Assembly (NCBI GenBank): GCA_030390025.1
Contig: CM059431.1
Coordinates: forward strand, 157,234,001 to 157,298,000
Length of the DNA stretch: 64,000 bases
Direction: 5' to 3'
Source of the DNA: Squalus acanthias
Taxonomy: Eukaryota
In this document: piece by piece, positions 511 to 62,839 of the stretch
Layout of the letters: every line of letters begins with the position of its first letter
Position numbering within the stretch: the first letter of the stretch is position 1
The notes under the pieces: generated by a model
What the model was told of the DNA's origin: nothing
Database searches by the model: none
Seen by the model: only the letters and a program-made list of their open reading frames with translations
Made by a program: the position numbers and the translations under genes

Positions 511-671
511 CTTATGAATTGTTTCAGTAAACACGTTTGCATCTAAGAGCGATTGACTAACAGCTTCCACGAATTCTTCAATTGACGATTCTAGACTCTG
601 ACGGTAGCACCCGATAATTCTTCCAAGCTGGATATCCGTGTAGCTCGCCAACATTAGGAACATTTTAATAT
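511..671 (-). CDS. Exon A, copy A; partner exon B expected left of the window
   Basis: 161 nt, ttcag|AT ... AAG|gtatgc, open frame. Confidence 0.65.
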
Positions 672-1802
672 CTGAATTTTCTATAAAAGTGTAAATTTGA
701 ACAGGTTAAAATACTATGTTTGCTTTGAAGCAATGAATAATCTGAACTAACTTTTAGAGTCGCAGCATTTCTTCAGAGTCTTTTAAACAGTGAGACGGCC
801 AATGGCGCCTCACATAGAAGGAAATTAGAGATAAAGCTGCCTCTTTTTCGTAGAGTTAAGTGAAACGACCTAGATCTTGCAACATGTGGATGTTGTTTAA
901 AGTAAGTAGGAAGTAAAGAGTGGAGGCCCATTGCAAGATTCCAGCCAGTGGTGCTGACGACTTTGTTGGAGTCCGGAGCAGCGGAACCAATAATCTGGGG
1001 AACATAGGAAAGGGAGTGAATGGACAAGAAATAAAAGTGGGTTTCTGAAGAAGACTGTAGAGTTAAGACGCTCGAGACCGTAAATGGAATTGTAGATGAG
1101 GACGATTGTTTCACAAATTGTCTGGGATTGCAAGTGAATGTAGGTCACTGACGAAGGGGATTATGGATAAGTGGAAATGAGGGTGAACTGATGAACTGAA
1201 ACAGTGGAGATCTGGAGTTTCTATCTGGCAGTGCACAAAGGTAGTTTAAGGAATCGAGTCTAAAACTCATAAAATCGTACATAAAGCACGAGCAAATATT
1301 CATATGTTATAGATCCAGAAAATTAACATATGATGGTTGCGGACGGTGATCTGAGAATCCAGTTCGAAATTTATTGCTCGAATCACCAGATGCTGCTGAG
1401 CAATTAGAAATAGTTTTTGACTCTCGCTTGATTGCATAAAGACCTAATAAATAATGTACAGATATTTAAAGAAAGCAACAGTAAATGCATGCTTAATCCT
1501 TCCTTCCTGGGAAAAGTAAACTGGGATACGGAACGGAGAAATTGAAATACTGTGAATCTACAGGTACTCAGAATAAATTTGATAGATATCAATACAGCAA
1601 TTACAAGAACACACCATTTGGAAAATAGTTATTGATATCAAGTTAAAATAATAACAGAATCTCTAATACCACATCTGAAACATGGCAATAGCTGGTAGGA
1701 TTCATAATTGAATGTATCTGTTTCTAAAGTGCACTGCGATGGAAGTTAAAGGACTGAGAGATACCACAATTAAATTAAGAATGTCATGGTTTTGCGGTCA
1801 GC

Positions 1803-4800
1803 AGTGGCTGCGGAGGTGAGCGGCACGCGAGCTGGGAGCGAGAGAGAGATACAACGAACCGGTGAATATAAAGAGGTAAAAATTAATCGAAATTTGACGT
1901 CGCCAGAAAGCAGGTAATTGATTGTATAGTGAGTATTTCTCTATTTCTCGCTTTTTAGAAAATTCAGCTTCTAAATTTAAGTGCCTTGATGTAGATTAAA
2001 AGATACATGTGTTCCAAATTTTAAAACAATTTATTTAATTAATTGAGTTGGGCGACCAGCCAATGTCTTGTTGTTGTTGCATGTGGGAGCTGGTGGACAC
2101 CATTGAGGTACACGGCGACCACATCTGCAGCAAATGTTGGCTGCTCCAGGAACTTTGGCTCAGACTTGATGAGCTGGAGTCCGAGCTTCAGACACTGCGA
2201 CATATTAGGGAGTAGGAGCGTTACCTGGACACTAAGTTCCAGGACAGTCAAACCCACTAGAGTAATTACTTCCAAATGTGGCCCATGGTCAGGGACAGGA
2301 AGGTGGTATCGGGATCCAGGATGTCGTGAGGGAGCCTCAGCCCTTGGCCTTGTCCAATAGGTAAGAGATTCTTGCTCCCTTTGTGGACGAGGGCAGGGAA
2401 TTCAGGGAGGATGAGCAATCTGAGCACAGCACCATGGAACAGGGAGCCATTCAAGGGGTGGAAGTAAAAATAAATATTTTAGTGATTGGGGACAGTATAG
2501 TTAGGGAGATAGATACTGTTCTCTGCAGCCGAGAGCGTGATTCCCGCAGGCTGTGTTGCCTGCCGGGTGCCAGAGTTAAGGACATCTCCTCTGGGCTGGA
2601 GAGGAACATGGAGTGGGAAGGAGAAGATCCAGTTGTCATGGTCCACGTAGGTAGCAATGACATAGCAACGACAAAGAAAGAGGTTCTGCTGAGAGAATAT
2701 GAGCAGCTAGGGGCTAAATTAAAAAGCAGATCAACAAAGGTAATAATCTCTGGATTACTACCTGAGCCACGAGCGAATTTGCATAGGGTAAATAAGATCA
2801 GAGAAAAGAACGAGTAGCTCAAAGACTAACGTGGGAGAAATGTGTTTCGATTTGTGGGCACTGGCACCTCTGCTAGTGTAAGAGGGAGCTGTTCCGTCTG
2901 CACGGGCTTCACGTGAACCATGCTGGGGCTAGAGTCCAGGCGAATCGACTAACTAGGGCTGTAGAGAGGGCTTTCAACTAAATAGAGGGGGGAGGGTGCA
3001 GGTGAGCGGGAATTTAAAAATGCAATTAGAAATGAGAAAATAATAGAGCAGGATAGAGATGGGTGAAATAATAACCAGAGTGTAACAGGAAGGGACATAA
3101 TGTTTAAAAATAAGTGTGCAACAGAAAATGGTGCCAAAACAAGGAGAAATGGTAAAAAGACATAGGTAAAAGCTCTATCTCTGAATGCACGCAGCATTTG
3201 TAACAAGATAGATGAGTTCACGCACAAATAAATATAAATGGATATGATCTGATCGCCATTACAGAGACGTATTTGCAAGGTGACTATGGCTGGCAACTGA
3301 ACCTTCCAGGGTATTTGATAATGCGGAAGGACAGACAAAAAGAAAAGGCAGGTGGGGTGGCTTTGTTGGTAAAGAATGAAATCAGAGCAGTGGTGAGAAG
3401 TGATATTGGCTCAGAAGACCACGATGTAGAATCGGATTGAGTGGAGATAAAAAAATAATACAGGGAAAAAGTCTCTGGTGGGCGTAGTCTACAGGCCTCG
3501 AACAGTAGCAATACAGTTGGACAGAGTATAAATCAACAAAGAATGTAGGCCTGTAAAAAAGGTACGGTAATAATGATGGGTGATTTTAAACACCGTATTG
3601 ATTGGACAAATCAAATTGGCCATGGTAGCCTTGAGGCGGAGTTCATAGAGTGTATCTGGGATGGTTTCCTAGAACACTATGGAATGGAACCACCAGGAAG
3701 CAGGCTATCTTAGATGCGGTACCGTGTAATGAGACAGAATTAATAAATGATCTCATAATAAAGGAGCCTCTAGGAAAGTGTGATCATAACATGGTTGAAT
3801 TTCAAGTTGAATTGGAGGGTGAGAAAGCTGTATCTCAAACCATTGTCCTGATCTTTAACAAAGGAAATAACAATGGCATGAGGGCAGAACTGGCTAAACT
3901 GGACTGGAAAAGTAGATTAAAGTGTAAAACAGTTGAAATGCAGTGGCGATCATTTAAGGAGATATTTCGTAACTCTCAAACAAAATATATTCCAGGGAGA
4001 AAGAAAGAATCTAATAGAAGGGAGCACCATCCGTCGCTAACTAAGGAAGTAAAGGATGATATCAAATTGAAAACGAAGGCATACAATGTTGCCAAGATTG
4101 GTGGGTGGCCAGAGGATTGGGAATTTTTTAAAAACCAACAAAGGATGATTAAAAAAATAATAGAGAGAGATGATGAATTATGAGAGTAAACTGGCAAGAA
4201 ATATTAAAACAGATAGTAAGAGATTCTACAGGTATATAAAAAGGAAGAGATTAGCTGAGACAGGGGAATTTAAAATGGGGAACGGGGAAATGTCAGAGAT
4301 TCTGAACAAATATGTTGTATCTGTCTTCACGGTAGAAGACACTGACAACATCCCAATAATGGATAATCAAGGGGCCAGAGGGAGGGTGAATAAAGATAAT
4401 CACTATCACTAAAAAAAAAGTAATTGGTAAAATGATGGAACTAAAAGAATACAAGCACATGCCTCAGACGGCCTGCATCCCAGGGCCTTAACACAAGTGG
4501 CTGCGGAGATAGTAGATGCATTGTTTGCAATATATCAAAAGTACCTGGACTCTGGAGAGGTCCCAGTGGCTTGGAAAACCGCAAATATAATACCCGAATT
4601 TAAGAAAGTAGGGAGACAGAAAGCAGGAAACTATAGACCAGTTAGCCTAACATCTGTCTCTGGGAAAAGGCTGGATTCCTTTTTTAAGGAAACAGTTGCA
4701 ATGTATTTACTAAATCATAATGCAGTCAAGCAGAGTCAGCATGGTTTTATGACAGGGAAATCATGTTTAACAAATTACCTGGAGTTCTTATAGGATGTAA

Positions 4801-6035
4801 CCAGCAGGGTGGACAAAGGTAAGCCAGTGGATGTGGTGTATTTGGATTTCCGGAATGCATTCGATAAGGTGCCACATAAACGGTTACTGCATAAGATAAG
4901 AGCTCACGGAGTTGGGGGTAATATTTTAGCATGGACAGAGAATTGGCTGACTGACAGAAATCAGAGAGTCGAGATAAATGGGTAATTTTCCGGTTGGCAA
5001 ACGGTAACTGGTGGGGTGCCACAGGGATCGGTGCTTCGGCCTCAACTATTTACAATCGACATGAATGACTTAGATGAAGGGACCGAGTGTAATGTAGCCA
5101 AGCTGGCGGATGAAACAGAGATGGGTGGGAAAGCAAGTTCTGCAGAGGACTCAAAGAATCTGCAAATGGATATAAACAGGCTAAATGAGTGGCAAAAATT
5201 TGGAAGATGGAGAATAATGTGGGAAAGAGCGAGGTTATCCACTTTGGTAGGAAAAATAAAGAAGCGAATTATTATTTAAATGGAGAGAGATTACAAAATG
5301 CTACAGTTCAGAGGGATCAGCGGGTCCTTGTGCATGAAACACAAAAAATTTACATGCAGGTACAGAACGTAATCAAAAAGGCAAATGGAATGTTGGCCTT
5401 TATTGGAAAGGGATTGGAGTATAAAAGCAAGGATGTCCTGCTACAACTGTACAGGTTATTGGTGAAACTACACCTGGAGTACTGCGTACAATTTTGGTGT
5501 CCTTATTTTAGAAAGGATATATTTGCATTGGAGGCAGTTCAGAGACTAGTCACTAGGTTAATTCCACAGATGAGTGGGTTGACTTATGAAGAAAGGTTGA
5601 GCAGGTTGGACCTATACTCTTTGGAATTTAGAAGAATGAGAGGCGATCTTATTGAAACATATAAGCTACTGAGGGGGCTCGCCAAGGTAGATGCAGAGAA
5701 GATGTTTCCCCTCGTGGGGAAATCTAGAACTCGGGGGCATAGTTTCAGAATAAATGGTCGCCCTTTTAGAACTGTGATAAGGAGGAATTTCTTCTCTATG
5801 ACGGTCGTAAATCTGTGGAATTCTCTGCCCCAGTGAGCCGTGGAGGCTGGGTCATTAAATACATTTAAGTTGGAGATATACAGATTTTTGCAAGATAAGG
5901 GATTGAAGGGTTATGGGGAGCGGGCAGGGAAGTGGCTTTGAGCCCAAGATCAGCTATAATCGTATTGAATGGCGGAGCAGGCTCCAGGGGCCATGTGTCC
6001 TATTCCCATCCTAATCTTATGTTCGTATGTTATTA
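1803..6035 (+). mobile_element. Near full-length degenerate CR1 LINE (ORF1 zinc finger/SGNH esterase; ORF2 APE + RT)
   Basis: GDSIVR, CCLPGA, HVGSND esterase motifs; NYRPVSLTS, QHGF, PQGSVL; CR1 C-terminus; TTATG-type tail; many stops and frameshifts; empty site near 40150. Confidence 0.95.
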
Positions 6036-7195
6036 TATTCTAAGCAAATGCATTTGCTTCTAGCCCCAATGTAAGCTTCACACAAAGACGTCGCAATCTA
6101 TGTGTGGAAAATTTCAGGTTTTCCGAAGTGTAATTCAAATCAACGGAGGATCATGGGGAGCCCCGAGTGCCAGCTGATGTGACGGCAACAGGCTGTCTAA
6201 GCAGTCAATCAAAACGCAGAATTCTCACAGATAGCGAACAAAATAATTAGTAAGCTCTTAAACTTCTAACTTTTTAAAAATATGTTAGAGCGAACGGAAC
6301 AAACATTGGCTCTCACATGGGGAAAATGCAAATCAGAAATAAAGAGGAAAAACTTTTTAAACAATTACATTTTCTTAAAAATATTAATTTTTATTAAAAT
6401 GAATAAAGTTGACTGCGCAAAATTAAATTAGATTTTTAGGCCCATAACTTTTGTTTGGAAGTCAATACGCTTTTGAAACCCAGTTACACCCAATCCCTTT
6501 AGGACTACCATTCAGTGGGGAATTTTAAAGCGCAATTACTGTGGAAGAGCCGAAGATTTCAGCAGTTTCCCTGATGTGAGAGATTTCCCTGATTGCCGGC
6601 TCTGGACGGGCACAGCGCAGCCGCTGCAGTTCTATTGAAGTCAACCGCAGGGAATATCGGACCTAGCGCACAACGGGCAACAGATGCAACACCGGCCATT
6701 TTTCGGCGAGGACATGAAACAGGCGGTATCGCATCCATCACCAGTTATACCCTGCCCCCATATAAACTTGAATTTAGCGGAGTATCGGGCGTGTTTTGTA
6801 ACTATCCACAAATGCAATTCCGCCTGTTGTGTGTCCCCGCCCATGTAGAATTTCATCCTCATGGACTTTAACTTAAACTAAGTTACTCGACATAAATAAT
6901 GAACTCTCTTGCTCGGAATGTAAATAAGGTATTTCGCGGCTTTTCACAGTAAGCAAGAAGTAGTGAAATGGAGGGCTATAGGAATGAACATCCAGACAGT
7001 TCAGTTGACGTTTGTTGTTGGAGTCCAGAGCCGAAAATCGATATACTGTTTACTACATTAAAGGGAGAGTAGGGTTGGGAGTGTAATAGAAGATATGCGA
7101 AGAAGACTGTAGAGACAAAGTGGGAGAGACCGGAGAGGAATTTGTAGATGAGGAGGAGGCTTTCACATAATGTCAGTTTGGGATAAGAAGTTAAT

Positions 7196-7938
7196 GGCCC
7201 AAAAATTCATCCTGCTGCGCGCGAGTACGCACTGCGTACTCTCGCGTATTCCCTCTGCAATTGCCGGTTTTCTGCATGCCCTGCGCATGCGCTGAAAACC
7301 GGCAATTGCTCTTTTGAAAAGGGGGCGGTTCCTCGGTGCATCGCGTGCGCGCTACAGGCTGCGCGCACGCTGTGCACTTCATGCTTTGGACGCGCAGGTA
7401 AGTACTGAAGATTTTAGAAATGTAAAAAGGAGAAGTGAGATCCACTTTTAACAAGGTAAGTAGTGAATTAAGTATTTTTTTGATTTTTTTTTTACAGGTA
7501 TATCTTTTTTAGAGACTTTAAAGACAGGTAAGTTTATTTTTAGAACTTTTTAAAAGATTTTAAATTTTTTCAAAAATTTATTTTTTTATTTAAAATGGTT
7601 AATTTATTTAACTATACTTATTTTATTAATGTGATGGTTTTTTTTTTAATTTAATTGAGGTTTAGCTGTTATTTTGGGGGGATGTAAGATTCATAGATTT
7701 CACAACCATGCTATGAAACTTATGAATGGAAGATGGTGTACTGCCATTGGCTCTAACTGAGTCACGTGATCCCACAGCTCGCACGAATTCACTGCGCCGG
7801 TGGGATACGCAAGCACTGCCCGGCTGATGTCTGGAACATCAAGTTCGTGCGAGCTGGATCTGAAAAAGCACAAGCGAGTTGAGAGTACGCGGGGAAGGCT
7901 TACCTCCGCGGGAACAGAGCGAGATCAATTTCTGGGCC
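7196..7938. mobile_element. Non-autonomous DNA transposon (MITE), PIF/Harbinger-like
   Basis: TIRs ggcccaaaaatt...aatttctgggcc; 3-bp TSD AAT; empty site aagttaatgtatg near 49630 and 57492. Confidence 0.85.
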
Positions 7939-7971
7939 AATGTATGTCATTAATACGGGGGATTATGCATA

Positions 7972-8952
7972 ATATAAGAACATCAGAAATAGGAGCAAGC
8001 GTAGGCCATTTGATCCTTCGAGCCTGCTCCGCAATTCAATAAGAACATGGCTGATCTTCTACCTCATTACAACATTCCTGCAATAGCTAATATCATTTGA
8101 TTCTCTTAATATTCTAAAATCTGTCGATCTCTGTCTTGAGTATAATCAAAGACGGAGCTTCCACAGCCCTCTGGAGTAGAGAATTCCAAAGATTCAAAAC
8201 CCGATGAGTGAATACATTTCGCCTCATCTCAGTCCTAAATGGCCAAGCTCTGATTCTGAGACTGTAACACGTGGTTCTCGATTCTCCAGTCAGGGGAAAG
8301 ATCCTCCCTGCAACTACCCCGTCAAGCCATGTAACAATTGTGTATGTTTCATTGAGATCACCTCTCATTCTTCTAAACGCTAGATCATAAAGGCATAGTC
8401 TGCTCAATCTCTCCTCATAGGACAATTCCACCATCCCAGGAACAAGTCTGTTGAACCTTCGTTGCTCTCTCTTTATGGCAGGTATAACCTTCCTTAGTTA
8501 AGGAGACAAAAAACATACACAATACTCCAGGTATTGTCTCACCAGGGCCCTATATAGATGCAGTAAGACGCCTTTACTCTTATACTCAAATCCTCTTTCA
8601 ATAAAGGCGAATATAAAATATGATTTCCTAATTGTTTGATGTACCTGCATGTTCGCGTTCAGTGATTCGTGTACAATAACATCCAGGTCCCTCTGAACAC
8701 AAACATTTCCCGATCATTTACCATTTAACCAATGTCCTGCTTGTCCATTGTTCCTCCCACATTATATTCCATTCGCCAAGTTATTCCCTACTTAATTAGC
8801 CTGTTTATATCCGCTTGAAGACTGCTTGCATCCTCCTCACATCTTACATTCCCACCCAGCTTTGTATCATTAGCAAACTTGGATAAATTACATTTCGACC
8901 CCTCATCCAATTTATTGATGTAGATTGTGAACAGCTGAGACCAAAGCACTGA
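7972..8952 (-). mobile_element. Older 5'-truncated CR1, 3' part (continues at 14161-14530)
   Basis: Antisense RT C-terminus RRMRGDL...NLWNSL; split by the younger CR1. Confidence 0.9.
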
Positions 8953-9856
8953 GTGCAAGTCAGCAGATGCTGCTGTGAGTTTGGGTAAGTGGAAGTATTT
9001 CTTTAATTGTTAGTTCTCTTTAAATCATTCTTGATAAGAGTACTTAAGCAGTTTAAGTGAAGGGGAAAAGTTAACTATTTAGGTTTCTGTTGGTTAAGAA
9101 TAGTATAACAAGGTTACACTGCAGTAGCAGTAAATTGTCACAGCAGGCAGTGGAAACCAGTTTTCTAATCAATCAGCAGGGGTCAAAGTCAGAGGGCGGG
9201 GCCAATTCATTGGTACCCGTATATAGGTGGAGCTGTTGCTGAACCCGAGACACTACACTAGTAGTGTCTCCCACCCTCCCACCTCCTCTAACTTTTAGGG
9301 GTAGAGGGAATTTAAAAGGTAGGTTCGATTTATATTTTGTTTTCAGGGACTTAACTTAATAAAGTAATATAAGGGTTAAGTCATGGCAGGAAATATCGGA
9401 ACCGTGTCGTGCTCCTCCTGTGCTATGTGGGAAATCAGGGACACTTCCAGTGTCCCTGACAACTATGTGTGCAGGAAGTGCATCCAGCTGCAGCTCCTGA
9501 TGGACCGCATGGTGGCGCTGGAGCTGCGGATGGACTCACTCTGGAGCATCCACGATGCCGAGAACTTTGTGGATTACTCATTTAGTGAGTTGAACACACC
9601 GCGGGTAAAGGCTAGGTCAGACAGTAAATGGGTGACCAAGAGGCAGGGCAATATCAAGAAGGTAGTGCAGGAGTCCCCTGCGGTCGTCTCCCTCCAAAAC
9701 AGATATACCGTTTTGGATACTGTTGGGGGAAATGACCTACCAGGGGAAGGCACCAGCAGCCAGGTTCATGGCACCATGGCTGGCTCTGCTGCACAGCAGG
9801 GCGGGAAAAAGAGTGGTAGAGCTATAGTGATAGGGGACTCAATTGTAAAGGGAATA

Positions 9857-10604
9857 TGACTCGGCCAACGTTGTCTACCTCATACGTTGCAGGAAAGAAT
9901 GCACCGCGGCATGGTACATCGGCGAGACCATGCAGACACTGAGACAACGTATGAACGAGCACCGCGCAACAATCGCCAGGCAGGATTGTTACCTCCCAGT
10001 CGGGGAACACTTCAGCAGTCAAGGACATTCAGCCTCGGATCTGCGGGTAAGCGTTCTCCAAGGCAACCTTAGAAACACACGACAACGCAAAATCATCGAG
10101 CAGAAACTGATAGCCAAGTTCCGCACTCATGAAGACGGTCTCAATCGGGATCTTGGGTTTATGTCACGATACATGACGTGATCCGGACTCGAGTCGTCGT
10201 TAGCTTGTTCACAGATGTGATTCCCAGTAAAAAAGTAAAAATTTTCCCAGTAAAAAAGTAAAAAAATGTTAAAGCTTTTCGTTTTACATACAGACGGCAG
10301 CTTTTGACACGTTAGAACCCCTGCGACTACACCTCATTGTCTCAGTTGTATCTTGCTATGTCTTTGATGTGGTACCTTCCTTGCTGACTTAATTAACTTT
10401 ATCACACCTCGGCAGATAGTCAGGATGATTTAATTTATTGGTCTGCAATTGTAAAGTACACATGCTTTGTTTTCCATCTATATATGCTTTGGAGATTCTG
10501 TATCTAATTTACTTCACCTGAGGAAGGAGCAAATCGATAGCTCCGAAAGCTTGTGATTTCAAATAAAACTGTTGGACTATAACCTGGTGTTGTGCGACCT
10601 CTCA
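9857..10604 (+). mobile_element. 5'-truncated Penelope-like element (GIY-YIG endonuclease end plus pseudo-LTR)
   Basis: NVVYLIRC...WYIGET...LRQRMNEH...GLN motif; 12-bp target duplication gtaaagggaata at 9845-9856 and 10605-10616. Confidence 0.92.
10514..10556 (+). ncRNA. Minimal type I hammerhead ribozyme motif in the Penelope pLTR
   Basis: TCAC-CTGAGGA-A-GGAGC(loop)GCTCC-GAAA-GCTT-GTGA: core boxes, stems I and II, palindromic AAGCTT in place of stem III. Confidence 0.75.
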
Positions 10605-13600
10605 GTAAAGGGAATAGACAGGAGTTTCTGTGGCCGCAACCGAGATTCCAGGACGATATGTTGCCTCCCTGGTGCAAGGGTCAAGGATGTCTCGGAGCGG
10701 CCGCAGAACATTCTGGAAAGGGAGGGTGAAGAGCCAGCTGTCGTGGTGCATGTAGGTACGAACGATATAGGTAAAAAGCGGGAAGAGGTCCTACAAGCAG
10801 AATTTAGGGAGCTAGGAGCTAAATTGAAAAGTAGGACCTCAAAGGTAGTAATCTCTGGGTTGCTACCAGTGCCACGTGCTAATCAGAGTAGCATGAACAG
10901 GATAGCGAGATTAAGTACGTGGCTTGAGCAGTGGTGCAGGAGGGAGGGTTTCAAATACCTGAGGAATTGGAACCAGTTCTGCGGGAAGTGGGACCTGTAC
11001 AAAAGGGACGGTCTGCACTTGGGCAGGACTGGAGCCGATGTCCTCGGGATAATATTTGCTAAGGCAGTTCGGGAGGATTTAAACTAAAATGGCAGGGGAA
11101 TGGGAACCTATGTAGCGAAACTGGGGGAAGTAATATGCAGTCAGAAACAAATGTTAGAAGGGTGTGAAACAATAAGGGAAATCCGAGTAAACAAAGGCAA
11201 GAAACACAAAGGGCCATACTAAATCATAATTCTAAAAGGACAAAGGATGTTAATAAAACAAGCCTAAAGGCGCTGTGTCTTAATGCAAGGAGTATCCGTA
11301 ATAAGGTGGATGACTGTGCAAATTGATGTTAACGGATATGATGTGATTGGGATTAAAGAGACGTGGCTCCAGAACAATCAAGGCTGGGAACTGAATATCC
11401 AGGGGTATTCAACATTCAGGCAGGATAGAATAAAAGGAAAAGGGGGTGGGGTAGCATTGCTGGTTAAAAAGGAGATTAATGCAATAGCTAGGAAGGACAT
11501 TAGCTGGGAGGATGTGGAATCAATATGGGTTGAGCTGCAGAACACCAAAGGGCAGAAAACGTTAGTGGGGGTTGTGTACAGACCTCCAAACAGTAGTAGT
11601 GAGGTGGGGGAGGGTATGAAACAGGAAATCAGAGGTGCATGCAAAAAAGGCGCAGCAGTTATCATGGGTGACTTTAATATGCATATAGATTGGGCTACTC
11701 AAACTGGAAGCAATACGGTGGAGGAGGATTTCCTGGAGTGTTTAAGGGATGGTTTCCTAAACCAATGTGTTGAGGAACCAACTAGAGGGGAGGCCATCCT
11801 GGACTGGGTGTTGTGTAATGAGGAAGGACTAATCAGCAATCTTGTGGTACGAGGCCCCTTGTGGAAGAGTGACCATAATATCTGGAGTTCTACATTAGGA
11901 TGGAGAAGGAAACAGTTAATTCAGAGACCATGGTCCAGAACTTAAATAAGGGCAACTTTGAGGGTATGAGGCGTGAATTGGCGAGGTTAGATTGGCAAGC
12001 GATATTTAAGGGGTTATCAGTGGAAGGGCAATGTCAGACATTTAGAGATCGCATGGATGAACTACAGCAATTGTACATCCCTGTCTGGCGTAAAAATAAA
12101 AAAGGGAAGGTGGCTCAACCATGGCTAACAAGGGAAATCACGGATAGTATTAAAAGCAAGGAAGTGGCATACAAATTGGCCAGAAGTAGCAGCAAACCCA
12201 GGGACTGGGAGAACTTTAAATCTCAGCAGAGGAGGACGAAGGGTTTGATTAGGGCAGGGAAAATAAAATATTAAAGGAAGCTTGCGGAGAACATTAAAAC
12301 GGACTGCAAAAGCTTCTATAAATATGTAAAAAGAAAGAGGTTAGTAAAAACTAACGTAGGTCCCCTGCAGTCAGAAACAGGGGAAGTCATAATGGGGAAC
12401 AAAGAAATGGCAGATCAATTGAACAAGTACTTTGGTTCGGTGTTTACTGTGGAGGACATAAACAACCTTCCGGAAATAAAATAGATCAAAGGATCTGGTA
12501 AGAGGGAGGAGCTAAGGGAAATCCTTATTAGTCGGGAAAAGGTGCTGGGGAAATTGATGGGACTGAAGGCTGATAAATCCCCAGGGCCTGATGGTCTGCA
12601 TCCCAGAGTACTTAAGGAGGTGGCCTTTGGAAATCGTGGATGCATTGACGATCATTTTTCAACATTCCTTAGACCCTGGATCAGTTCCAAAGGAGTGGAG
12701 GGTGGCTAATGTAACCCCTCTTTTTAAAAAAGGAGGGAGGGAGAAAGCAGAGAATTATAGACCGGTCAGCCTGACATCGGTGGTGGGTAAAATGATGGAA
12801 TCAATTATTAAAGATGTAATAACAGAACATTTGGAAAGTGGCGACATGATAGGTCCAAGTCAGCATGGATTTGTGAAAGTGAAATCATGCTTGACAAATC
12901 TTCTGGAATTTTTGGAGGATGTTTCCAATAGGGTGGACGGGGGTGAACCAGCAGATGTGGTGTATTTGGACTTTCAGAAGGCCTTCGACAAGGTCCCACA
13001 CAAGAGATTGGTGTGCAAAGTTAAAGCACATGGGATTGGGGGTAAGGTGTTGACGTGGATTGAGAACTGGTTGGCACACAGGAAACAAAGAGGATGAGTA
13101 AATGGGTACTTTTCAGAATGGCAGTCAGTGACCAGCGGGGTACCGCAGGGTTCGGTGCTGGGGCCCCAGCTGTTTACATTATATATTAATGATTGGAGGA
13201 AGGGATTAATTGTAATATCTCCAAATTTGCGGATGACACTAAATTGGAGGCAGTGTGAACAATGAGGAGGATGCTAGGAGGCTACAGAGTGATTGGACAG
13301 GTTGGGTGAATGGGCAAATGTATGGCAGATGAAGGACAATGTGGATAAATGTGTGGTTATCCACTTTGGTGGTAAAAATAGGGAGGCAGACTATTACCTG
13401 AATGGTGGCAGATTAGGGAAAGGGGAGGTGCACCGAGACCTGGGCGTCATGGTACATCAGTCACTGAAGGTGGGAAGGCAAGTGCAGCAGGCAGTCAAGA
13501 AAGCAAATGGCATGATGGCCTTCATAGCAAGGGGATTTGAGTACAGGAGTAGGGAGGTGATGCTACAGTTGTACAGGGCCTTGGTGAGGCCACACCTGGA

Positions 13601-14160
13601 GTATTGTGTGCAGTTTTGGTCTCCTAACTTGAGGAACGACATTCTTGCTATTGAGGGAGAGCAACGAAGGTTCACTAGATTGATTCCTGGGATGGCCAGA
13701 CTGACATATCAAGAAAGACTGAATCAACTGAACTTGTAACCTCTGGAGTTCAGAAGAATGAGGGGGGAACTTATAGAGACGTTTAAAATCCTGACTGGTT
13801 TAGACAAATTAGATGCGGGCAGAATGTTTCCAATGTTAGGGAAAACTAAAACAAGGGGTCACAGTCTAAGGATAAAGGGGAAGCCATCTAAGACTGAGAT
13901 GAGGAGGAACTTCTTCACCCAGAGAGTGGTGAATCTGTGGAATTCTCTACCACAGAAGGTTGTTGAGTCCAGTTCGCTAAATATATTCAAAAGGGAGTTA
14001 GATATAATACTCACAACTAGGGAGATCAAGGGGTATGGTGAGAAAGCAGGAATGGGGTACTGAGGTAGCATGTTCAGCCATGAACGCATTGAATGGCGGT
14101 GCAGGCTCGAAGGACCGAATGGTCTACTCTTGCACCTATTTTCTATGTTTCTATGTTTCT

Positions 14161-15065
14161 ATCCTTGCAGTAGCTCACTAGGAACAGCCTGCCAACAAGA
14201 ATATGATCCTTTTATTCCAACTCTCAGTTTCTGTCAGTTAACCAATTCTCAATACATGCTAATATATTACGCCCAATCCCATGAGTCTTAATTTTGTTTA
14301 ACAACCTCTTGTGTGGCACCTATTCGAAAGCCTTCTGAAAATTCAAATGCACCACATCCACTGAGTCCCCCTTATCTGTTCTGCTAGTTAAAAACTCAAA
14401 AAACTGCAACAGATTTGTCAAACACGATTTCCCTTTTATAAATCCGTGTTGACTCTGGCCAATACCATTATTGTTTTCTAAGTGCCCTGTTAACACGTCC
14501 TTAAAAATAGATTCTAGCATTTACACTAATACTGTTCTATCCTTTGTTGCTCCAACATGGATGAGCTCAGATTTGTCTCCATTGAAATTCATTTGCCACG
14601 GTTCTGCACATACACTTAATCTATCGATATCTCTCTGTAAGTTTTGCTTTTATCTGCACTGCCTCCTAACTTTGTGAAAAGTCGCACAAAACCAGGTTAT
14701 AGTCCAACAGTTTTATTTGAAATCACATGCTTTCGGAGCTACTGCCCCTTCGTCAGGTGAAGTAAAAAGGCTTTTTACTTCACCTGACGAAGGGGCAGCA
14801 ACTCCGAAAGCTTGTGATTTAAAATAAAACTGTTGGACTACAACCTGGTGTTGTGCGACTTCTCACTTTTGTCCACCCCAGTCCAACACCGGCATCTCCG
14901 CATCATCCTAACTTTGAGTAATCAGTATATTTGAATGCAGGACGTTCTATGCTATCATCTAAGACGTTAATAAATACTGTCAATAGTTGAGACTGCAACA
15001 CAGATCCCTGCGGGACAAAACTAGCCACATCCTGTCAATGTGAGTCCCTAAACATTATCCCTAAT
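14161..15065 (-). mobile_element. Continuation of the antisense CR1 plus an adjacent degenerate CR1-like fragment
   Basis: QSQHGFIKGKSCLTNL...LNFQKAFE. Confidence 0.85.
14675..14905. mobile_element. Palindromic Penelope pLTR-only insertion with two opposed hammerhead motifs (14723-14760 minus, 14780-14817 plus)
   Basis: About 95-bp inverted arms centred at 14770; right arm matches the 3' end of the Penelope at 10510-10598; TSD tcctaactttg at 14664-14674 and 14906-14916. Confidence 0.88.
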
Positions 15066-15453
15066 TAACGGCCGTGTGTTAGATGGCTCGAGTTATCCAA
15101 AACTTCAGGAGTCACAGTTTATCGGAGAAAGCATGTTGATAGCCATGGTTGAACTAAGGTTGAGTGCAAAATTTTGCGTAGGGACAATACGTTATTTCTT
15201 AACATTCTGTAAGTTTGAGCGTATAATTTACCTCACTGGTATAGTTAACATTCCTGTGAAGCGCCTTGGGACTTTTACTACGTTAAAGTTGCTATATAAT
15301 TACACGATGTTTCTGTTGTTGATGAGTTTAACAGTCTCAGATCAGTCGGAATCCACAACTGAATGAGAAGAGATCAAAAACGCAACTTCAGGTTTACTGG
15401 ATTGCAAACAAAAGCTGGCAGATATATCAGTTGAAGTGAAAGAGTAACCTTAC

Positions 15454-15580
15454 CCGATGTGTGTGCGCTTGTGCCATATCTGCCGGCTCCTGGCTCTTCA
15501 TTTACTGTGTGTGTGAGGCTGATGTCATTGTATGTATTCGTGCTTTCCAAAGTTTCGGTTGGATCAATTTCCTGTTGGAT
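15454..15580 (-). CDS. Exon E3, copy A
   Basis: Intact splice sites (cag|ATC, G|gtaagg) and open frame. Confidence 0.55.
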
Positions 15581-16674
15581 CTGATTATAGGCAGAATATG
15601 ATTAGATACAATAGGTCTGACTTTCCGGTTACTGAAATGTATGAGCCACAAATTTCGCCAGCCAGTGCAGCAACCGACAATTAGAGTCCTCAGGGACGAG
15701 GTACGCTAATTACGCTAGAAATATATCGTGGTACCAATCATAATTGCAAAAACCGAAAACAACAAAGGCTATAAAGTTGTTCGATAAGGTGAATTAATTA
15801 AAAATGGAGCCGAGGTGATCCCAAAAGTTGTATTTAATCTTTAAGAAAGCAATTACTTGTGTAATCAGGATAAGAAAGTTTGTAAACTAAAATTCACAGA
15901 CTTCTGATGAGGCAGACTCTGAGCCGAGGTGAGCAGGAATCGCTTCACAAATAGGGGCGGGAGAGTAGAAGCATAATTAATGAATGTAATTCCGTAGACA
16001 TAGGGAAACTGGGAGCATAGGTAAATTTCCAATCCAATCCATCGGATGAAATCTCGCTCCAAATAGATACATGGCCCCAAATTACAGAGCCAAGAATGAA
16101 GTAACCGGAAGCATGTCGAAGAGGGGCCGGCCAAAATGAATGTGGTAAAGGTTGGAGTGACTATTGAAATGCAATATATCAGTTCGTGATTGGAGCCAAT
16201 AGTGCACATACAATGCGAGTGCTCTGCTTGGAGGCGAAGCTATAAATCTGGATCTGGGTTTAGAGGTGAGGAAGCAAATGCAGTCTTACTGTTGGGCATG
16301 GATGAAGGTTCATGACCAAGGGATTATATAGTTACTCAGTTAAAAGGATATATCTTAATTCATGCAAAATTAATCTTTGCTCTTGCAGAGCAGTGCTGGA
16401 TGCAGTTCACCGACTGTCTTCTGATTTACTTTCGGGGGTAAAAAAAAAATCGGTCAAAATTGGCGTCTGATACGCACCCGAGAGGAAATTATGCAATGAC
16501 GTGGAAATCTCGGCAATCAACCTTTTGCCTAATGCAAAATGTCAGAGCGGTGGTCCGTGTAACCAATGCGCAGTGCAACTTGCCTACTTCAGGAAGGAAA
16601 GGCTGACGAAGAGTAAAAGCTACTGGTTATAATTAAACAAACACGTCTGGTCAATCCATTTAAGTCAAAAATAC

Positions 16675-16844
16675 CTCAGAATCAATCGGAGTGAATACGC
16701 TTTTATGAAGCAGATTTGCACTGATACCAGACGCAGATTCTTCTTCAGCTTCAAGTATTCTATCTCGGTACATTTCCGTATCTTTGGATTCATGAGTGTC
16801 AGCGCCTGTCGATACAGTTGGTCCAACTCCAGTAATATTATCCA
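16675..16844 (-). CDS. Exon E2, copy A
   Basis: Intact splice sites and open frame (VDNITGVGPTVSTGADTHESKDTEMYRDRILEAEEESASG...DSE). Confidence 0.55.
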
Positions 16845-17084
16845 CTATAAAATACAAGTGGAACAAAAAATATCGGATAGCTAAAATAAACGATAATCTG
16901 TAGAAGAGGCATATAGAAATATTTTGCACTGCATCAAACTAATTATTCAAACGAAGAGGGAAAGTCAAATAATTAATAATCAATCTGTAAATATATATTT
17001 ATCTGTCTGTATGTGTATCTCGTTGACTGTCTGGCTATCAATCTAACTATTACATATATCTCCATCTGTCTATTTGCTTATTCT

Positions 17085-17830
17085 ATTTAGTGATCTGCTA
17101 AACTGTACTCTGATGTAATTGAATACACGGCAGTCGATGCATCATCTTAAGCATACTGCAGGGTGAATCTTTGAAACACAATCAGTGGATTTCTCGACAC
17201 TGGCCTTGCAATTGGTTCGTGCTGGAGGCCGCATACTGGGCACGGGCCTGAAGTGTAATTGTGACGTTCTAAGATAAATTAAAACGTGCTGAATTAAATG
17301 GGCAGCACCTTTTACATTTCTCCCGATTTTGATATACATTCACTACGTTCGCTAGTACTTTCGATTCGCTATCGGTCATTGTACACCATCACACGAAGCC
17401 AAAATTACCCCGGGGAATTATGTGATGTAAATGGTAGGGCTGAGACTCATCAATATCACCATCTGGCAATCTGCTTAGTCTATTTATGGATCAGCTAAAC
17501 TGTACCCTGGTGTAATGGAATAGACGGCAGGTTACCGTCTGCAGTCGATGCATCACTAAAAGCATAGTGCAGGGTGAACGCTTAAAACTCAATCAGTGAA
17601 TGTATCTACCCTGCCCTAGAAATTTGTCCTTGCCGGCTGCCGCGAATTGGACACGGGGCAGAGCTTGTAATTGTGACTTTCTAATTGTGAAATCAATTTA
17701 AATTTGCTGATTTGATTGGGCATGTGTTTTTACATCTCTTGCGATTTCGACTTCCATTCGCTTTACTATTTTCGATTCGCTATCGCCCAGTTTACATCAT
17801 CACACGATGCCAATATTACATCATTTCTGC
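17085..17830. repeat. Two diverged ~390-bp tandem units in intron 1; related unit at about 19240-19450; paralogs in copies B and C
   Basis: gctaaactgtac...gcagtcgatgcatca...tgcagggtgaa...ttcgattcgctatcg occurs twice. Confidence 0.75.
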
Positions 17831-17930
17831 GCCAAAAAGGGGAGGCCTGAGACACTCCCAATATTGAGGTTTACAGGATTGAATTTAAATAATTGCGATT
17901 ATATCAGTTCAAAAGAAGGAGTAAACTCAC

Positions 17931-18462
17931 CGGATGTGTATAATCGTTTGTCAACCATGCTGGCTCCTTTTTCTTGCAGCCGTGAATGTTGAATTTCTTT
18001 CAATATGGGTGTGGGGCTCATTTCGTGAGTATTCGTGCTGAGCACAGTTTCCATCGGAGCGGTTTCCTCTTGGTTAGGATGAAATATTTCAGGCTTGATA
18101 CTGACAGGACTGCTCTTTACAGATATATTGGTGTGAGACTCGTTTCCAGTGGGAACATTTTCTTCCAATTCTTTTTTGTGACATTTAACCATGTCACCAG
18201 CTGTCGCGGTGCTTCTGTCAGTTACTGCAGGGATATTCTGCGCTTTGCCCTTTTCTTTATGACTCTCATTGTTTGTAGATAAAGTGCCTTTATCTTTGAA
18301 CAATCCTCCGGCAATGACATTCGGTTCTGTGTCTGGTCTCTTGTGCCAATGTTCACTTCGATCACCGGGATTGGTTTTGACATCATGCAGTTCGTCACAA
18401 TGATGAATACGTTAGAGCGAATCTTTTGTTCCCCGGGAGATCTCTTTCGGATTCTGAGCCAT
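17931..18462 (-). pseudogene. Exon E1, copy A, with premature stop
   Basis: ATG in good context (accATGG) at 18462, but codon 17 is TAA (18412-18414) where copies B and C have GAA; donor intact. Confidence 0.7.
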
Positions 18463-19829
18463 GGTGTCTCCAGACGGAGAATCTTCTCTTTCTAAATCAA
18501 AGACTCAGATATTCAGCAATAACATTGGTAGACCTGATCTTATATATCTGTAACTGGACAAGACAGATTTTAAATAATATTTCAAGAAATTCACGCGTTT
18601 CATATTTTTTACAATACCTGGTATGATCCAGTATTGTTTGGGCTCCATCACACTAAATTGAGGGCAATAGGAAGAAGGATAAAGCGTAGCATTACCCGTG
18701 CCACGTGTAAATGAAGACACACTGGAGTAATTAGCGGGCCAACGCGTGGTTAGTACTTAGGTGTACGGAATTCGGAATTTCGTTTCTTTATACAATGGGA
18801 CACCGAAGCGGGGCGGGTGCTGTACAGAACTATTGGTCTGCAACTAAACAGGTCATCGTGGCAGGGTAGATATAATGGAGGGGGGAATGTTTCAACCAGA
18901 TGCAGGGGTTGTTGTGGTAAGTGTCAGAAAACCCCCTTACTGATTATAGCATACATTCTTTTATGCCAGAGCATATATAAATTAACCTTTAATAACTCTA
19001 ATACCAAAGTTGGGAGAACATGATTGTAAAATGTTAATAACGTAAATGCGAGACATAAAAAAAACAATAGAGCTTTGCTTGAATTAATTAAAAATGTTTG
19101 ACAAATAAGATCTGTGACCTGGAACTTTATTTTAGGGGATTATAGATTGGACATGATTATCTTCACGCATACATGGTGGAATGATTCAAATCGCTCGATT
19201 AAATATCTGTAACGATAATTGTTTTAGATTAATTTATACACAATGGCCTAGAGATTGGTTCTTGCTGGTTGGCGTGAACTGAGCGCCGCGAGGAGTGTTT
19301 TATTGTGACTTTCTTATTGTGAGATGAAATTAAAACTTGCTCAAGTGAATGGGCTGCCGGTTTTACAACTCTCACGATTTTGGATTCCATTGATTACAGT
19401 CGCTAGTACTGTCGATTCACCATCACCCATTTTACAACATCACCCAACATCAAAGTTACCGCCGACACACCCGATATTGGGCCTCGGGCCTCGTTTACAG
19501 CAGACTGGGGCGGTGCAGAGACCTGCTGAGCTTCCACAGGAACCTGGCCAATGACCATGATTTTAAGATCGATGGTCTGAAATGGGCAACTGGGACAGTT
19601 CAGTGATTTAGCGAAGAAGGGCGATCAGATTAGAGCGAGAGAGAAGTGGTCGGCTGAGAGAGTGTGGGACTGGTAGAAGAGCGAGGGGTGCAAACGTCGA
19701 GCGAGTGAGAGAGGCAATCGAGATTAGTGACCGAGATCTTTGTGTGAAGCACACTATTGGGCTAACAGCAAACGCCTCTGCTTCGTCGCTGACTGCAAAT
19801 TCCGGCCCATTCTTTATTTGATAGTGGTA

Positions 19830-20588: not shown

Positions 20589-20590
20589 AC

Positions 20591-21058: not shown

Positions 21059-21099
21059 GTATGCTACAAATATGTTGGAATCGTCCAAATGGTCACCTA

Positions 21100-35763: not shown

Positions 35764-35764
35764 G

Positions 35765-43101: not shown

Positions 43102-44232
43102 CTGAATTTTCTGCAAAAGTGTAAATGAGAACAGGTTAAAATACTATGTTTGCATTTGAAGCAATGAATATTTGAACTAACTTTTAGTGCATCAGCTTTT
43201 CTTTCGAGCTTTTCAAGCAGTGAGACGGCCAATGGCGCCTCACACAGCAGGAATTTAGAGTTAAACTGCCTCTTTTTCGTAGAGTTAAGAGAAACGACCG
43301 AGATCTTGCAACATGTGGAGTTTGTTTAAAGTAAGTAGGAATTACAGAGTGGAGGCCCAAAGCAACGGATTCCAGCCAGTGTTGCTGACGACTTTGTTGG
43401 AGTCCGGAGCAGAGGAACCAATAATTTGGGGACCACAGCAAAGGGAGTGAATAGACAAGAAATAAAAGAGGGTTTCTGAAGAAGACTGTAGAGTTAAGAC
43501 GCTCGAGACCGTAAAGGGAATTGTAGATGAGTAGGAGACTTTCACAAATTGTCTGGGATAGCAAGTGAATGTCGGTCACTGACGAAGGGGATTATGGATA
43601 AGTGGAAATGAGGGTGAACTGATGAATTGAAACAGTGGAGATCTGGAGTTTCTATCTGGCAGTGCACAAAGGTCGTTTAAGGAATCGAGTCTAAACCTCA
43701 TAAAATCGTAGATAAAGCACGAGCAAATATTCATATGTTATAGATCCAGAAAATTAACATATGATGGTTGTGGACGGTGATCTGAGAATGCAGTTCGAAA
43801 TTTATTTCTGGAATCACCAGATGCTGCTGAGAAATTAGAAATAGTTGTGACTCTCGATTGATTGCATAAAGACCTAATAAATAATGTACAGATATTTAAA
43901 GAAAGCAACAGTAAATGCATGCTTTTTCCTTCCTTCTTGGGAAAACTAAACTGGGATACGGAACGGAGAAATTGAAATACTGTGAATCTACAGGTACTCA
44001 GAATAAATTTGACAGATAGAAATACATCCATTACAAGAACACAATATTGGGAAAATAGTTATTGATATCAAGTTAAAATAATAACAGAATCTCTAATACC
44101 ACATCTGAAACATGGCAATAGCTGGTAGGATTCATAATTGAATGTATCTGTTTCTAAAGTGCAGTGCGATGGAAGTTAAATGCCTGAGAGATACCACAAT
44201 TAAATTAAGAATGGCAAGGTTTTGCGGTCAGC

Positions 44233-51936: not shown

Positions 51937-52063
51937 CCGATGTGTGTGCGCTTATGCCATATCTGCCGGCTCCTGGCTCTTCATTTACTGTGTGTGTGAG
52001 GCTGATGTCATTGTATGTATTCGTGCTTACCAAAGTTTCGGTTGGATCAATTTCCTGTTGGAT
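51937..52063 (-). CDS. Host gene exon E3, copy B
   Basis: AG/GT boundaries, 127 nt, open frame, phase 0 to 1. Confidence 0.65.
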
Positions 52064-53188: not shown

Positions 53189-53358
53189 CTCAGAATCAAT
53201 CGGAGTGAATACGCTTTTATGAAGCAGATTTGCACTGATACCAGACACAGATTCTTCTTCAGCTTCAAGTATTCTATCCCGGTACAATTCCGTATCTTTG
53301 GATTCATGAATGTCAGCGCCTGTCGATACAGTTGGTCCAAATCCAGTAATATTATCCA
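53189..53358 (-). CDS. Host gene exon E2, copy B
   Basis: AG/GT boundaries, 170 nt, open frame, phase 1 to 0. Confidence 0.65.
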
Positions 53359-54444: not shown

Positions 54445-54976
54445 CGGATGTGTATAATCGTTTGTCAACCATGGTGGCTCCTTTTTCTTGCAGCCGTGAA
54501 TGTTGATCTTCTTTCAATATGGGTGTGGGGCTCATGTCGTGAGTATTCGTGCTGAGCACAGTTTCCATCGGAGCGGTTTCCTCTTGGTTAGGATGAAATA
54601 TTTCAGGCTTGATACTGACAGGACTGCTCTTTATTGATATATTGGTGTGAGACTCGTTTCCAGTGGGAACATTTTCTTCCAATTCTTTGTTGTGACATTT
54701 AACCATGTCACCAGCTGTCGCGGTGTTCCTGTCAGTTACTGCAGGGATATTCTCCGCTTTGCCCTTTTCTTTATGACTCTCATTGTTTGTAGATAAAGTG
54801 ACTTTATCTTTGAACAATCCTCCGACAATGACATTCGGTTCTGTGTCTGGTCTCTTGTGCCAAAGTTCACTTCCATCATCGGGATTAGTTTTGACAACAT
54901 GCAGTTCGTCACAATGATGAATGCATTCGAGCGAATCTTTTGTTCCCCGGGAGTTCTCTTTCGGATTCTCAGCCAT
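54445..54976 (-). CDS. Host gene exon E1, copy B
   Basis: Same translated ORF as copy C; ATG at 54976, donor G|gtgagt at 54444. Confidence 0.7.
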
Positions 54977-55301
54977 TATGTCTCCAGACGGAGAATCTTC
55001 TCTTTCTAAATCAAAGACTCAGATATTCAGCAATAACATTGGTAGACCTGATCTTATATATCTGTAACTGGACAAGACAGATCTTAAATAATATTTCAAG
55101 AAATTCACGCGTTTCATATTTTTACAATACCTGGTATGATCCAGTATTGATTGGGCTCCATCACACTAAATTGAGGGCAATAGGAAGAAGGATAAAGCGT
55201 AGCATTACCCGTGCCACGTGTAAATGAAGACACACTGGAGTAATTAGCGGGCCAACGCGTGGTTAGTACTTAAGTGTACGGAATTCGGAATTTCGTTTCT
55301 T

Positions 55302-59798: not shown

Positions 59799-59925
59799 CC
59801 GATGTGTGTGCGCTTATGCCATATCTGCCGGCTCCTGGCTCTTCATTTACTGTGTGGGTGAGGCTGATGTCATTGTATGTATTCGTGCTTACCAAAGTTT
59901 CGGTTGGATCAATTTCCTGTTGGAT
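59799..59925 (-). CDS. Host gene exon E3, copy C (IQQEIDPTETLVSTNT...SAHTS)
   Basis: Acceptor tataatcag|ATC, donor TCGG|gtaaga; 127 nt, phase 0 to 1; peptide resembles the end of E1. Confidence 0.65.
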
Positions 59926-61051: not shown

Positions 61052-61221
61052 CTCAGAATCAATCGGAGTGAATACGCTTTTATGAAGCAGATTTGCACTG
61101 ATACCAGACACAGATTCTTCTTCAGCTTCAAGTATTCTATCCCGGTACAATTCCGTATCTTTGGATTCATGAATGTCAGCGCCTATCGATACAGTTGGTC
61201 CAAATCCAGTAATATTATCCA
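61052..61221 (-). CDS. Host gene exon E2, copy C (VDNITGFGPTVS...FTPIDSE)
   Basis: Acceptor ttgtattttatag|TG, donor GAG|gtattt; 170 nt, phase 1 to 0; in frame with E1 and E3. Confidence 0.65.
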
Positions 61222-62307
61222 CTATAAAATACAAGTGGAACAAAAAATATCGGATAGCTAAAATAAACGACAATCTGTAGAAGAGGCACATAGAAATATG
61301 TTGCACTGCATCAAAAAAATTATTCAAACGAAGAGGGAAAGTCAAATAATTAATAATCAATCTGTAAATATATATTTATCTGTCTGTATGTGTATCTCGT
61401 TGACTGTCTGTCTATCATTCTAACTATTACATATATCTCCATCTGTCTATTTGCTTATTCTATTTAGGGATCTGCTAAACTGTACTCTGATGTAATTGAA
61501 TACACGGCAGTCGATGCATCATCATAAGCATGCTGCAGGGTGAATCTTTAAAGCACAAGCAGTGCATTTATCGACACTGGCCTTGCAATTGGTTCGTGCT
61601 GGCTGCCGCAACCTGGGCACGGGCCAGAAGTGTAATTGTGACTTTCTAAGATAAATTAAAACGTGCTGAATTAAATGGGCAGCACCTTTTACATTTCTCC
61701 CGATTTTGATATACATTCACTACGTTCGCTAGTACTTTCGATTCGCTATCGGCCATTGTACACCATCGCATGAAGCCCAAATTACCCCGGGGAATTATGT
61801 GATGTAAATGGTAGGGCTGAGACACATCAATATCACCATCTGGCAATCTGCTTAGTCTATTTATGGATCTGCTAAACTGTACCCTGGTGTAATGGAATAG
61901 ACGGCAGGTTACCGTCTGCAGTCGATGCATCACTAAAAGCATAGTGCAGGGTGAACGCTTAAAACTCAATCAGTGAATGTATCTACCCTGCCCTAGAAAT
62001 TTGTCCTTGCCGGCTGCCGCGAATTGGACACGGGGCAGAGCTTGTAATTGTGACTTTCTAATTGTGAAATCAATTTAAATTTGCTGATTTGATTGGGCAT
62101 GTGTTTTTACATCTCTTGCGATTTCGACTTCCATTCGCTTTACTATTTTCGATTCGCTATCGCCCAGTTTACATCATCACACGATGCCAATATTACATCA
62201 TCCCTGCGCCAAAAAGGGGAGGCCTGAGACACCCCCAATATTGAGGTTTACAGGATTGAATTTAAATAATTGCGATTATATCAGTTCAAAAGAAAGAGTA
62301 AACTCAC

Positions 62308-62839
62308 CGGATGTGTATAATCGTTTGTCAACCATGGTGGCTCCTTTTTCTTGCAGCCGTGAATGTTGATCTTCTTTCAATATGGGTGTGGGGCTCATGT
62401 CGTGAGTATTCGTGCTGAGCACAGTTTCCATCGGAGCGGTTTCCTCTTGGTTAGGATGAAATATTTCAGGCTTGATACTGACAGGACTGCTCTTTATTGA
62501 TATATTGGTGTGAGACTCGTTTCCAGTGGGAACATTTTCTTCCAATTCTTTGTTGTGACATTTAACCATGTCACCAGCTGTCGCGGTGTTCCTGTCAGTT
62601 ACTGCAGGGATATTCTCCGCTTTGCCCTTTTCTTTATGACTCTCATTGTTTGTAGATAAAGTGACTTTATCTTTGAACAATCCTCCGACAATGACATTCG
62701 GTTCTGTGTCTGGTCTCTTGTGCCAAAGTTCACTTCCATCATCGGGATTAGTTTTGACAACATGCAGTTCGTCACAATGATGAATGCATTCGAGCGAATC
62801 TTTTGTTCCCCGGGAGTTCTCTTTCGGATTCTCAGCCAT
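62308..62839 (-). CDS. Host gene exon E1 (ATG-containing), copy C; low-complexity N-terminal region MAENPKENSRG...KRLYTS
   Basis: 532-nt open frame from ATG at 62839 to strong donor TCCG|gtgagt (phase 1); no TE motif recognised; present in three paralogous copies. Confidence 0.7.

Follow-up and report, generated by a model that had tools for sequence, protein, structure and literature searches.

In-frame arrays of linker and CARD exons at the front of an NLR gene in the shark Squalus acanthias

Introduction

Some NLR families are known to change rapidly at their N-terminal ends. According to the relevant passages of the sources cited here, the NLR-B30.2 genes of zebrafish are clustered, have one large NACHT exon each and carry single-exon N-terminal peptide repeats that have been duplicated and shuffled among members (Howe et al. 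2016, PMC4852459), and zebrafish NLR copy number varies widely (PMC11192531). The whale shark has a large expansion of NLRP-related NLRs with rapid turnover (Tan et al. 2021, PMC8455134). Transmembrane NLRs were called anthozoan-specific in 2016 (PMC5094078). This paper concerns an NLR locus on the minus strand of a 64,000-nucleotide (nt) stretch of the 3.7-Gb genome of Squalus acanthias (the window, C7:157234001-157298000, where C7 is contig CM059431.1), which carries repeated linker exons (E1, E2 and E3) and repeated pairs of exons (A and B) that together encode a CARD.

An initial annotation, made from the letters of the window alone, had proposed that these modules could be spliced, with the internal E1 copies skipped, into a single gene of variable length, lengthened accordion-style by duplication. 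With moderate confidence, the window is read here as the 5' exons of one NLR locus, whose three E1-E2-E3 units and three CARD pairs share the reading frame of one intact NACHT-LRR end just beyond the window. Local duplication, together with recombination among paralogous genes, likely produced the array, and a default transcript with all exons would end at the stop in E1(A). This reading draws on what can be seen directly in the DNA, namely the exon map, the phases, the single NACHT end, the TAA in E1(A), the varying module number of neighboring genes and the mosaic pattern of similarity.

One locus with a single NACHT-LRR end

The window holds the three E1-E2-E3 units and the series of A and B exons up to the third A; the third B (B3) lies beyond position 1. 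The initial annotation had missed this part of the gene, which lies 0.2-12 kb past the window start: after B3 come a single NACHT exon, a pair of LRR exons and the terminal exon (Table 1). The NACHT exon has three Pfam matches above cut-off (NACHT, E 2.6e-30; NOD2_WH, 8.4e-8; NLRC4_HD2, 2e-8) and no Pfam match to Fisna. The features that define an NLR are present: a NACHT with winged helix and HD2, C-terminal LRRs and an N-terminal death-fold domain. The closest protein matches to the window exons come exclusively from sharks and rays, and the window is predicted to be the front half of one shark-type NLR gene made of in-frame linker and CARD exon blocks.

The rest of the window is mostly LINE-like retrotransposon sequence (LINE, long interspersed nuclear element). 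A scan of the window for DNA or protein matches to NACHT, LRR, transmembrane (TM) and terminal exons gave none, and no exon in it could be identified as the E4 of the initial annotation. Since there is a single NACHT-LRR end and the window itself is free of DNA from NACHT, LRR and terminal exons, the modules make up one locus rather than separate complete genes, in line with the initial proposal. A further NACHT exon, this one broken, is found together with LRR exons at C7:157180331-157182040, 44 kb downstream of the intact one, and no A or B exon was found before it. Simple tandem repeats at window positions 38766-39458 and, beyond the window end, at 85055-85809 in the same numbering give long open frames in retrotransposon-like DNA.

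All 12 exons of the proposed path are where the initial annotation had placed them, with AG/GT ends and the phases it had described: E1 ends in phase 1, and both E2+E3 and A+B run from phase 1 to phase 1 (A, 170 nt, 1 to 0; B, 199 nt, 0 to 1). The path is free of stops over 2,331 nt, or 2,304 nt with the A acceptor originally chosen, and the copy-B model is, as reported, 1,549 nt long with zero stops. Exon A has two in-frame AGs 9 nt apart, of which the second had been taken (43101/33121/671 rather than 43110/33130/680); among 48 A copies, the first is kept in 43 and the second in 45, and none has lost both. Since duplicated exons inherit their phases, the symmetry counts as one fact rather than twelve and is not independent evidence. 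Joined to the tail outside the window, the path encodes an NLR of 1,539 amino acids (aa) with three CARDs, or 1,726 aa with E1(B) included, and this model has no hydrophobic segment.

Splicing of E1 and the start of transcription

Two defects in the internal E1 copies had been noted, and both are real. E1(A) has a TAA at codon 17, and E1(B) is cut off from its upstream sequence about 330 bp above the ATG by a tandem junction at 55302/55303. What had been overlooked is an in-frame, phase-1 acceptor in E1, 29 nt above its ATG. Because E1 has this acceptor of its own, the internal copies should be included. E1(A), E1(B) and E1(C) have identical acceptors and donors, and the AG is also kept in three of the five E1 copies of two paralogues with tandem E1. 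Skipping of the internal E1 copies is thus not expected as the default: they share their splice sites with E1(C), and translation of the all-exon path would end in E1(A) at 834 aa, with many exon junctions still far downstream. Inclusion of E1(A) would give a two-CARD protein of this length without NACHT, or a substrate for decay, and the full-length, three-CARD receptor would need E1(A) to be skipped.

The start presents a second difficulty. Five paralogues have a non-coding block of 500 bp upstream of E1 (e.g. C7:154862900-154863460) that bears the motif CGGAAG(T/A)G, which we take to be ETS-like, and because it carries this motif the conserved block is likely a promoter or first exon. The block is absent from the 284 kb around the window, having been removed by the join at 19733-21542. 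E1(C), previously the preferred start, has no advantage over the other two E1 copies in the window, since the block is missing from all of them. Two other candidates were rejected: 19440-19733 as a promoter, since it is a copy of the intron that follows E1 and E3, and a signal-peptide first exon further upstream, which is a diverged TM-type exon.

With the block lost, transcription would need to come from further upstream. A diverged TM-A-B-A-B-TM-A unit lies on the same strand at C7:157338791-157363497 (window 104791-129497), 41-66 kb above the window end. Its frames are open, its A exons have the second AG only, its second TM exon has lost its donor and its last A has no B. This unit may be the source of transcription for the window; TM-to-A gaps of 26-44 kb occur in paralogues. 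The E1(A) stop and the missing likely promoter are the two predicted obstacles to a long protein from this copy, and its full-length expression is possible, if somewhat doubtful.

Dscam-like genes are combinatorially spliced receptors that produce many isoforms from one gene. The window could likewise be a working long gene that gives receptors with variable numbers of CARDs and linkers, with E1(A) routinely skipped. Every in-frame path is available and reaches the intact NACHT-LRR end, and the RefSeq isoforms of relatives vary, those of Heterodontus francisci (X1, X3-X6) in length by steps of 64 aa and those of Chiloscyllium plagiosum (X1-X6) in their linker and C-terminal parts. However, these isoforms are known from automatic models only, and the Heterodontus series is produced by nested starts, not by internal skipping; two Heterodontus paralogues differ in their number of units. 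With E1(A) splice sites equal to those of E1(C) and the conserved upstream block missing, a working long gene of this kind is unlikely. The proposal of one variable-length gene thus holds for the single locus and for module number, which varies within single genes of paralogues and other sharks, and fails for the skipping of internal E1 copies as the default.

Table 1. Exons of the NLR locus, duplications and rearrangement in the window, and module arrangements in neighboring genes. Two-dot ranges are window positions; Mb positions are on C7.
Feature	Position	Strand	Description
E1(C)	62308..62868	-	561-nt linker exon; in-frame phase-1 acceptor 62868, ATG 62839, phase-1 donor
E2(C)	61052..61221	-	170 nt, phase 1 to 0; half CARD, decayed and homologous to exon A
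E3(C)	59799..59925	-	127 nt, phase 0 to 1; linker exon homologous to E1 3' end
E1(B)	54445..55005	-	identical to E1(C); includable in frame as internal exon
E2(B)	53189..53358	-	170 nt, phase 1 to 0
E3(B)	51937..52063	-	127 nt, phase 0 to 1
A1	42941..43110	-	N-terminal half of CARD 1; second in-frame acceptor 43101
B1	41063..41261	-	C-terminal half of CARD 1
A2	32961..33130	-	N-terminal half of CARD 2
B2	28566..28764	-	C-terminal half of CARD 2
E1(A)	17931..18491	-	intact splice sites, premature TAA 18414-18412; predicted poison exon
E2(A)	16675..16844	-	170 nt, phase 1 to 0
E3(A)	15454..15580	-	127 nt, phase 0 to 1
A3	511..680	-	N-terminal half of CARD 3
B3	C7:157233831-157233633	-	outside window
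NACHT exon	C7:157226083-157224361	-	1,723 nt, stop-free
LRR exons	C7:157222879-157222793 and 157222528-157222337	-	tblastn match to LRR segments of shark NLR models
Terminal exon	from C7:157222093	-	frame closes 28 aa into exon
Recent tandem duplication	47440-55303 and 55302-63167	.	7.86-kb units, 99.4% identical (42 mismatches, 4 gaps)
Older duplication unit (broken A, E1-E2-E3, A)	7..24075	.	about 95% identical to 42435-68448, extending beyond window end
Rearrangement	19733..21542	.	B-to-A intron fused to E1-upstream DNA; junction 19733
E1-CARD	159.55 Mb		NACHT intact
E1-(E2-E3)x3-CARD	155.86 Mb		NACHT intact
(E2-E3)x4-CARD	156.77 Mb		stops
E1x2-E2-E3-CARDx2	154.87 Mb		broken
E1x3-E2-E3-CARD	155.67 Mb		stops
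TM-CARDx3	154.04 Mb		frameshift
CARDx5	158.59 Mb		stop
CARD	C1065		NACHT intact

The modules

By similarity, A and B together are a CARD. A1 and B1 are 58% and 53% identical, respectively, to residues 620-733 of XP_072354261.1 from Scyliorhinus torazame, a segment with a Pfam CARD match above cut-off. The predicted fold of a Mobula relative (pLDDT 84), with the window exons in its alignment, has CARDs (ARC, NOD1) as its best structural matches with a probability of 1.0, although at E values of only 0.13-0.44 and for the fold of the relative, not that of the joined CARD of the window. Pfam searches with 15 single-exon or open-reading-frame translations gave nothing above cut-off, and exon A matched none of five candidate longer proteins.

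E2 is a decayed A exon, with the same length and phases, 76 of 170 bases shared and profile scores above those of shuffled sequences; plain BLASTP of E2 against A gave no match. E3 is a copy of the 3' end of E1, not of B. A reading of the E2+E3 pair as a death-fold unit was rejected because E3 fails to score against the B profile. E1 itself has a weak likeness to the C-terminal linkers of Chiloscyllium (E 0.019).

Symmetric modules of class 1-1 are the kind that spread by exon shuffling. E1, E2+E3, A+B and the TM exon all have phase-1 introns at both ends, and the hallmarks of exon shuffling, phase-1 borders and modules duplicated and swapped between genes, are both present.

Assembly of the locus

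The E1-E3 units are local duplicates, 95-100% identical to each other and at most 86% to other genes. At the junction of the recent tandem duplication, a LINE abuts DNA from upstream of E1; the join shows microhomology of about 2 nt and zero Ns. The 0.6% difference between copies B and C could be allelic, in which case the repeated modules, or at least this pair, would be an artefact of two haplotypes assembled together. The junction is, however, a novel join with microhomology and no Ns, and the other copies differ by 4-17%, far above allelic levels, which makes an artefact very improbable.

Another event is the inversion at 19733-21542, which broke an A exon and joined the B-to-A intron to DNA 1.27 kb above the E1 ATG, a join that copy C inherited. 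The scar includes the first 39 nt of an A exon (21542-21504) and, inverted on the plus strand at 20891-21058, a dead copy of A that carries a stop.

The CARD modules show a different pattern of similarity from the linkers. Each B exon in the window is 93-96% identical to a module of another gene, in contrast to 83-87% to its siblings in the window: B1 is 96% identical to a module 1.6 Mb away and 86% to B2, and for B2 the value is 93% to a module at C7:158.59 Mb. A1 and A3, too, are a little nearer to outside copies. Because the nearest relatives of the CARD modules lie in other genes and not in the window, the locus is a mosaic, and the local duplication proposed initially is only part of its making. 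The map of best matches is a patchwork that switches among several paralogue types, often at LINEs. The phase-1 borders would allow unequal crossing-over, often at LINEs, to add or swap linker and CARD units with the frame unbroken, and the accordion would act mainly at the level of the DNA, between genes and probably between alleles.

Such a patchwork with rearrangement scars could also mean that only the last exons (e.g. E2(A)-E3(A)-A3-B3-NACHT-LRR) are a gene with an unrecognized internal start, the rest being debris or a separate CARD gene without NACHT. Stop depletion within the window is indeed weak (1 stop observed, about 3.9 expected as the sum of scaled values), and CARD arrays without NACHT are present elsewhere in the cluster. 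On the other hand, there are zero remnants of terminal or NACHT exons between the copies, the conserved upstream block and NACHT each occur once in paralogues whose exon order is the same, and an internal start was not found; this alternative is quite unlikely, somewhat more so than the working long gene.

Module number in neighboring genes

Module number was mapped in a cluster sample of 1.65 Mb from C7:154-159.6 Mb plus contig C1065, picked by similarity and not as a survey. In these neighboring genes, the number of CARD modules before NACHT ranges from one to five, that of E2-E3 units from zero to four and that of E1 copies from one to three. Judged by exon content, the accordion is real at the DNA and family level, with shuffling between paralogues. 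The suggestion that modules are added accordion-style to one protein is to this extent upheld, by counts that vary within genes with a single NACHT. The paralogue with an intact NACHT and three E2-E3 units has lost the ATG and acceptor AG of its E1 (C7:155871797-155872356).

Five arrays end in a 129-nt, phase 1-1 TM exon, and the 20-120 kb examined beyond them contain no NACHT. The CARDs in these arrays number nine; six plus a lone A; a lone B plus six; five; and one. In the largest, at C7:158832880-158902409, nine tandem A-B modules have open frames and splice sites and are followed 2.2 kb later by the TM exon, with a further TM exon 44 kb upstream; the next 120 kb have no NACHT except for a diverged CARD-NACHT gene. 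The B-to-TM junction of this array is common to four similar arrays.

Intact copies make up 45 of 54 for A, 48 of 52 for B, 7 of 12 for E1, 14 of 16 for E2, 15 of 18 for E3 and 8 of 8 for TM. Of the 14 NACHT exons mapped, 5 are intact and 9 broken; genome-wide, there are 95 scored NACHT matches among 481 candidates. Selection was gauged by counting variants against column majorities, with no tree, which gives a rough expectation and cannot show that the copy in the window is functional. On this measure, the 52 B copies have one stop and zero frameshifts (about 11 stop variants expected), and 46 B copies have a single 6-nt indel in the exon versus 25 non-triplet indels in 210 nt of flank. Omega-like values of 0.76-1.12 across A, B, E1, E2 and E3 make amino-acid change near neutral. 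The open frames of B together with near-neutral change therefore point to frames that are preserved while the sequence drifts.

Weight of the evidence

Several points weigh against the reading of the window as an array whose default transcript stops in E1(A). The E1 acceptor AG is lost in 4 of 12 copies, so that the site may be weak, which would favor skipping. The NACHT exon of this locus has stayed intact, in contrast to the 9 broken ones among the 14 mapped, which hints that it is used; the changes private to it have an omega-like value of 0.58 (23 changes), indistinguishable from those of two broken sisters (0.61 and 0.70). The cluster counts favor detectable and intact copies, and many of the copies are segmental duplicates. 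Finally, which exons are included, where the start lies and whether the upstream block acts as a promoter are all inferred from the DNA.

A bolder extension, offered tentatively and rather improbable as a whole, is that CARD valency tunes NLR signaling in sharks, with two-exon CARD cassettes gained, lost and swapped among the genes of the cluster and some members anchored in the membrane through a phase-1 TM exon, and that E1(A) is a splice switch between a three-CARD receptor and a two-CARD decoy without NACHT.

Comparison with known systems

NLRs number in the hundreds in this genome and are mostly known from automatic annotation. This locus and its neighbors show that the signaling end is modular, with linker and CARD units that differ in number and pass from gene to gene with the frame kept. 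If these genes are expressed, the effect of CARD number per receptor on the nucleation of oligomers could be tested in a vertebrate. The lesson from the present copy is that freedom from stops along a path does not make it a transcript.

The closest counterparts are automatic models from other sharks. In XP_072354261.1, a hydrophobic segment separates four CARDs from a fifth, which is followed by NACHT; in XP_078087540.1 from Mustelus asterias, such a segment comes before three CARDs, NACHT and LRRs. Like the locus in the window, they repeat the A+B module (five or three times) before one NACHT with short LRRs, at identities of about 43-58% for A, 37-55% for B and 48-52% for NACHT; unlike it, they have a hydrophobic segment and no E1-E3 linkers between the CARDs. 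A search with residues 50-740 of XP_072354261.1 returned only the query itself. In six shark and ray models, these two included, a hydrophobic segment precedes the CARD/NACHT part (in one, it follows the CARDs), which suggests membrane-anchored NLRs in cartilaginous fish. If expressed, NLRs with TM exons would extend the design reported as anthozoan-specific in the relevant part of that account (PMC5094078). The literature searched, which covered main texts and few subscription journals, yielded no description of multi-CARD or transmembrane NLRs in sharks.

Other layouts exist. LOC122544084 of Chiloscyllium plagiosum has linker repeats weakly like E1-E3 after its LRRs, and a CARD-like domain closes two of its isoforms. 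This would reflect either a layout with the CARD at the C terminus or read-through in the model. In a bony fish, Arctogadus glacialis, CAL8349490.1 (found through exon B) has at least eight tandem stretches matching Pfam CARD, apparently an independent array. P0083, a candidate multi-CARD protein with 22 stretches, was rejected as a low-complexity repeat.

Mammalian NOD2 has a fixed tandem pair of CARDs, and CARD-only proteins such as ICEBERG are possible regulators. The shark genes resemble NOD2 in having more than one CARD before NACHT and differ from it in the number, which is one to five before NACHT and up to nine in arrays without a nearby NACHT. Products of the latter kind would resemble ICEBERG-type proteins as possible regulators.

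The whale-shark expansion is described without N-terminal module arrays in the passages concerned (PMC8455134). In the zebrafish NLR-B30.2 genes, the repeat unit is, in the part of the account that deals with it, a 30-aa peptide (PMC4852459), whereas here whole two-exon CARDs are repeated as well. The zebrafish proteins also have Fisna and B30.2, neither of which was found here, where the NACHT exon has no Fisna match and the frame closes early in the terminal exon. By analogy, the shuffling of repeat exons among zebrafish NLRs is a precedent for the shark accordion.

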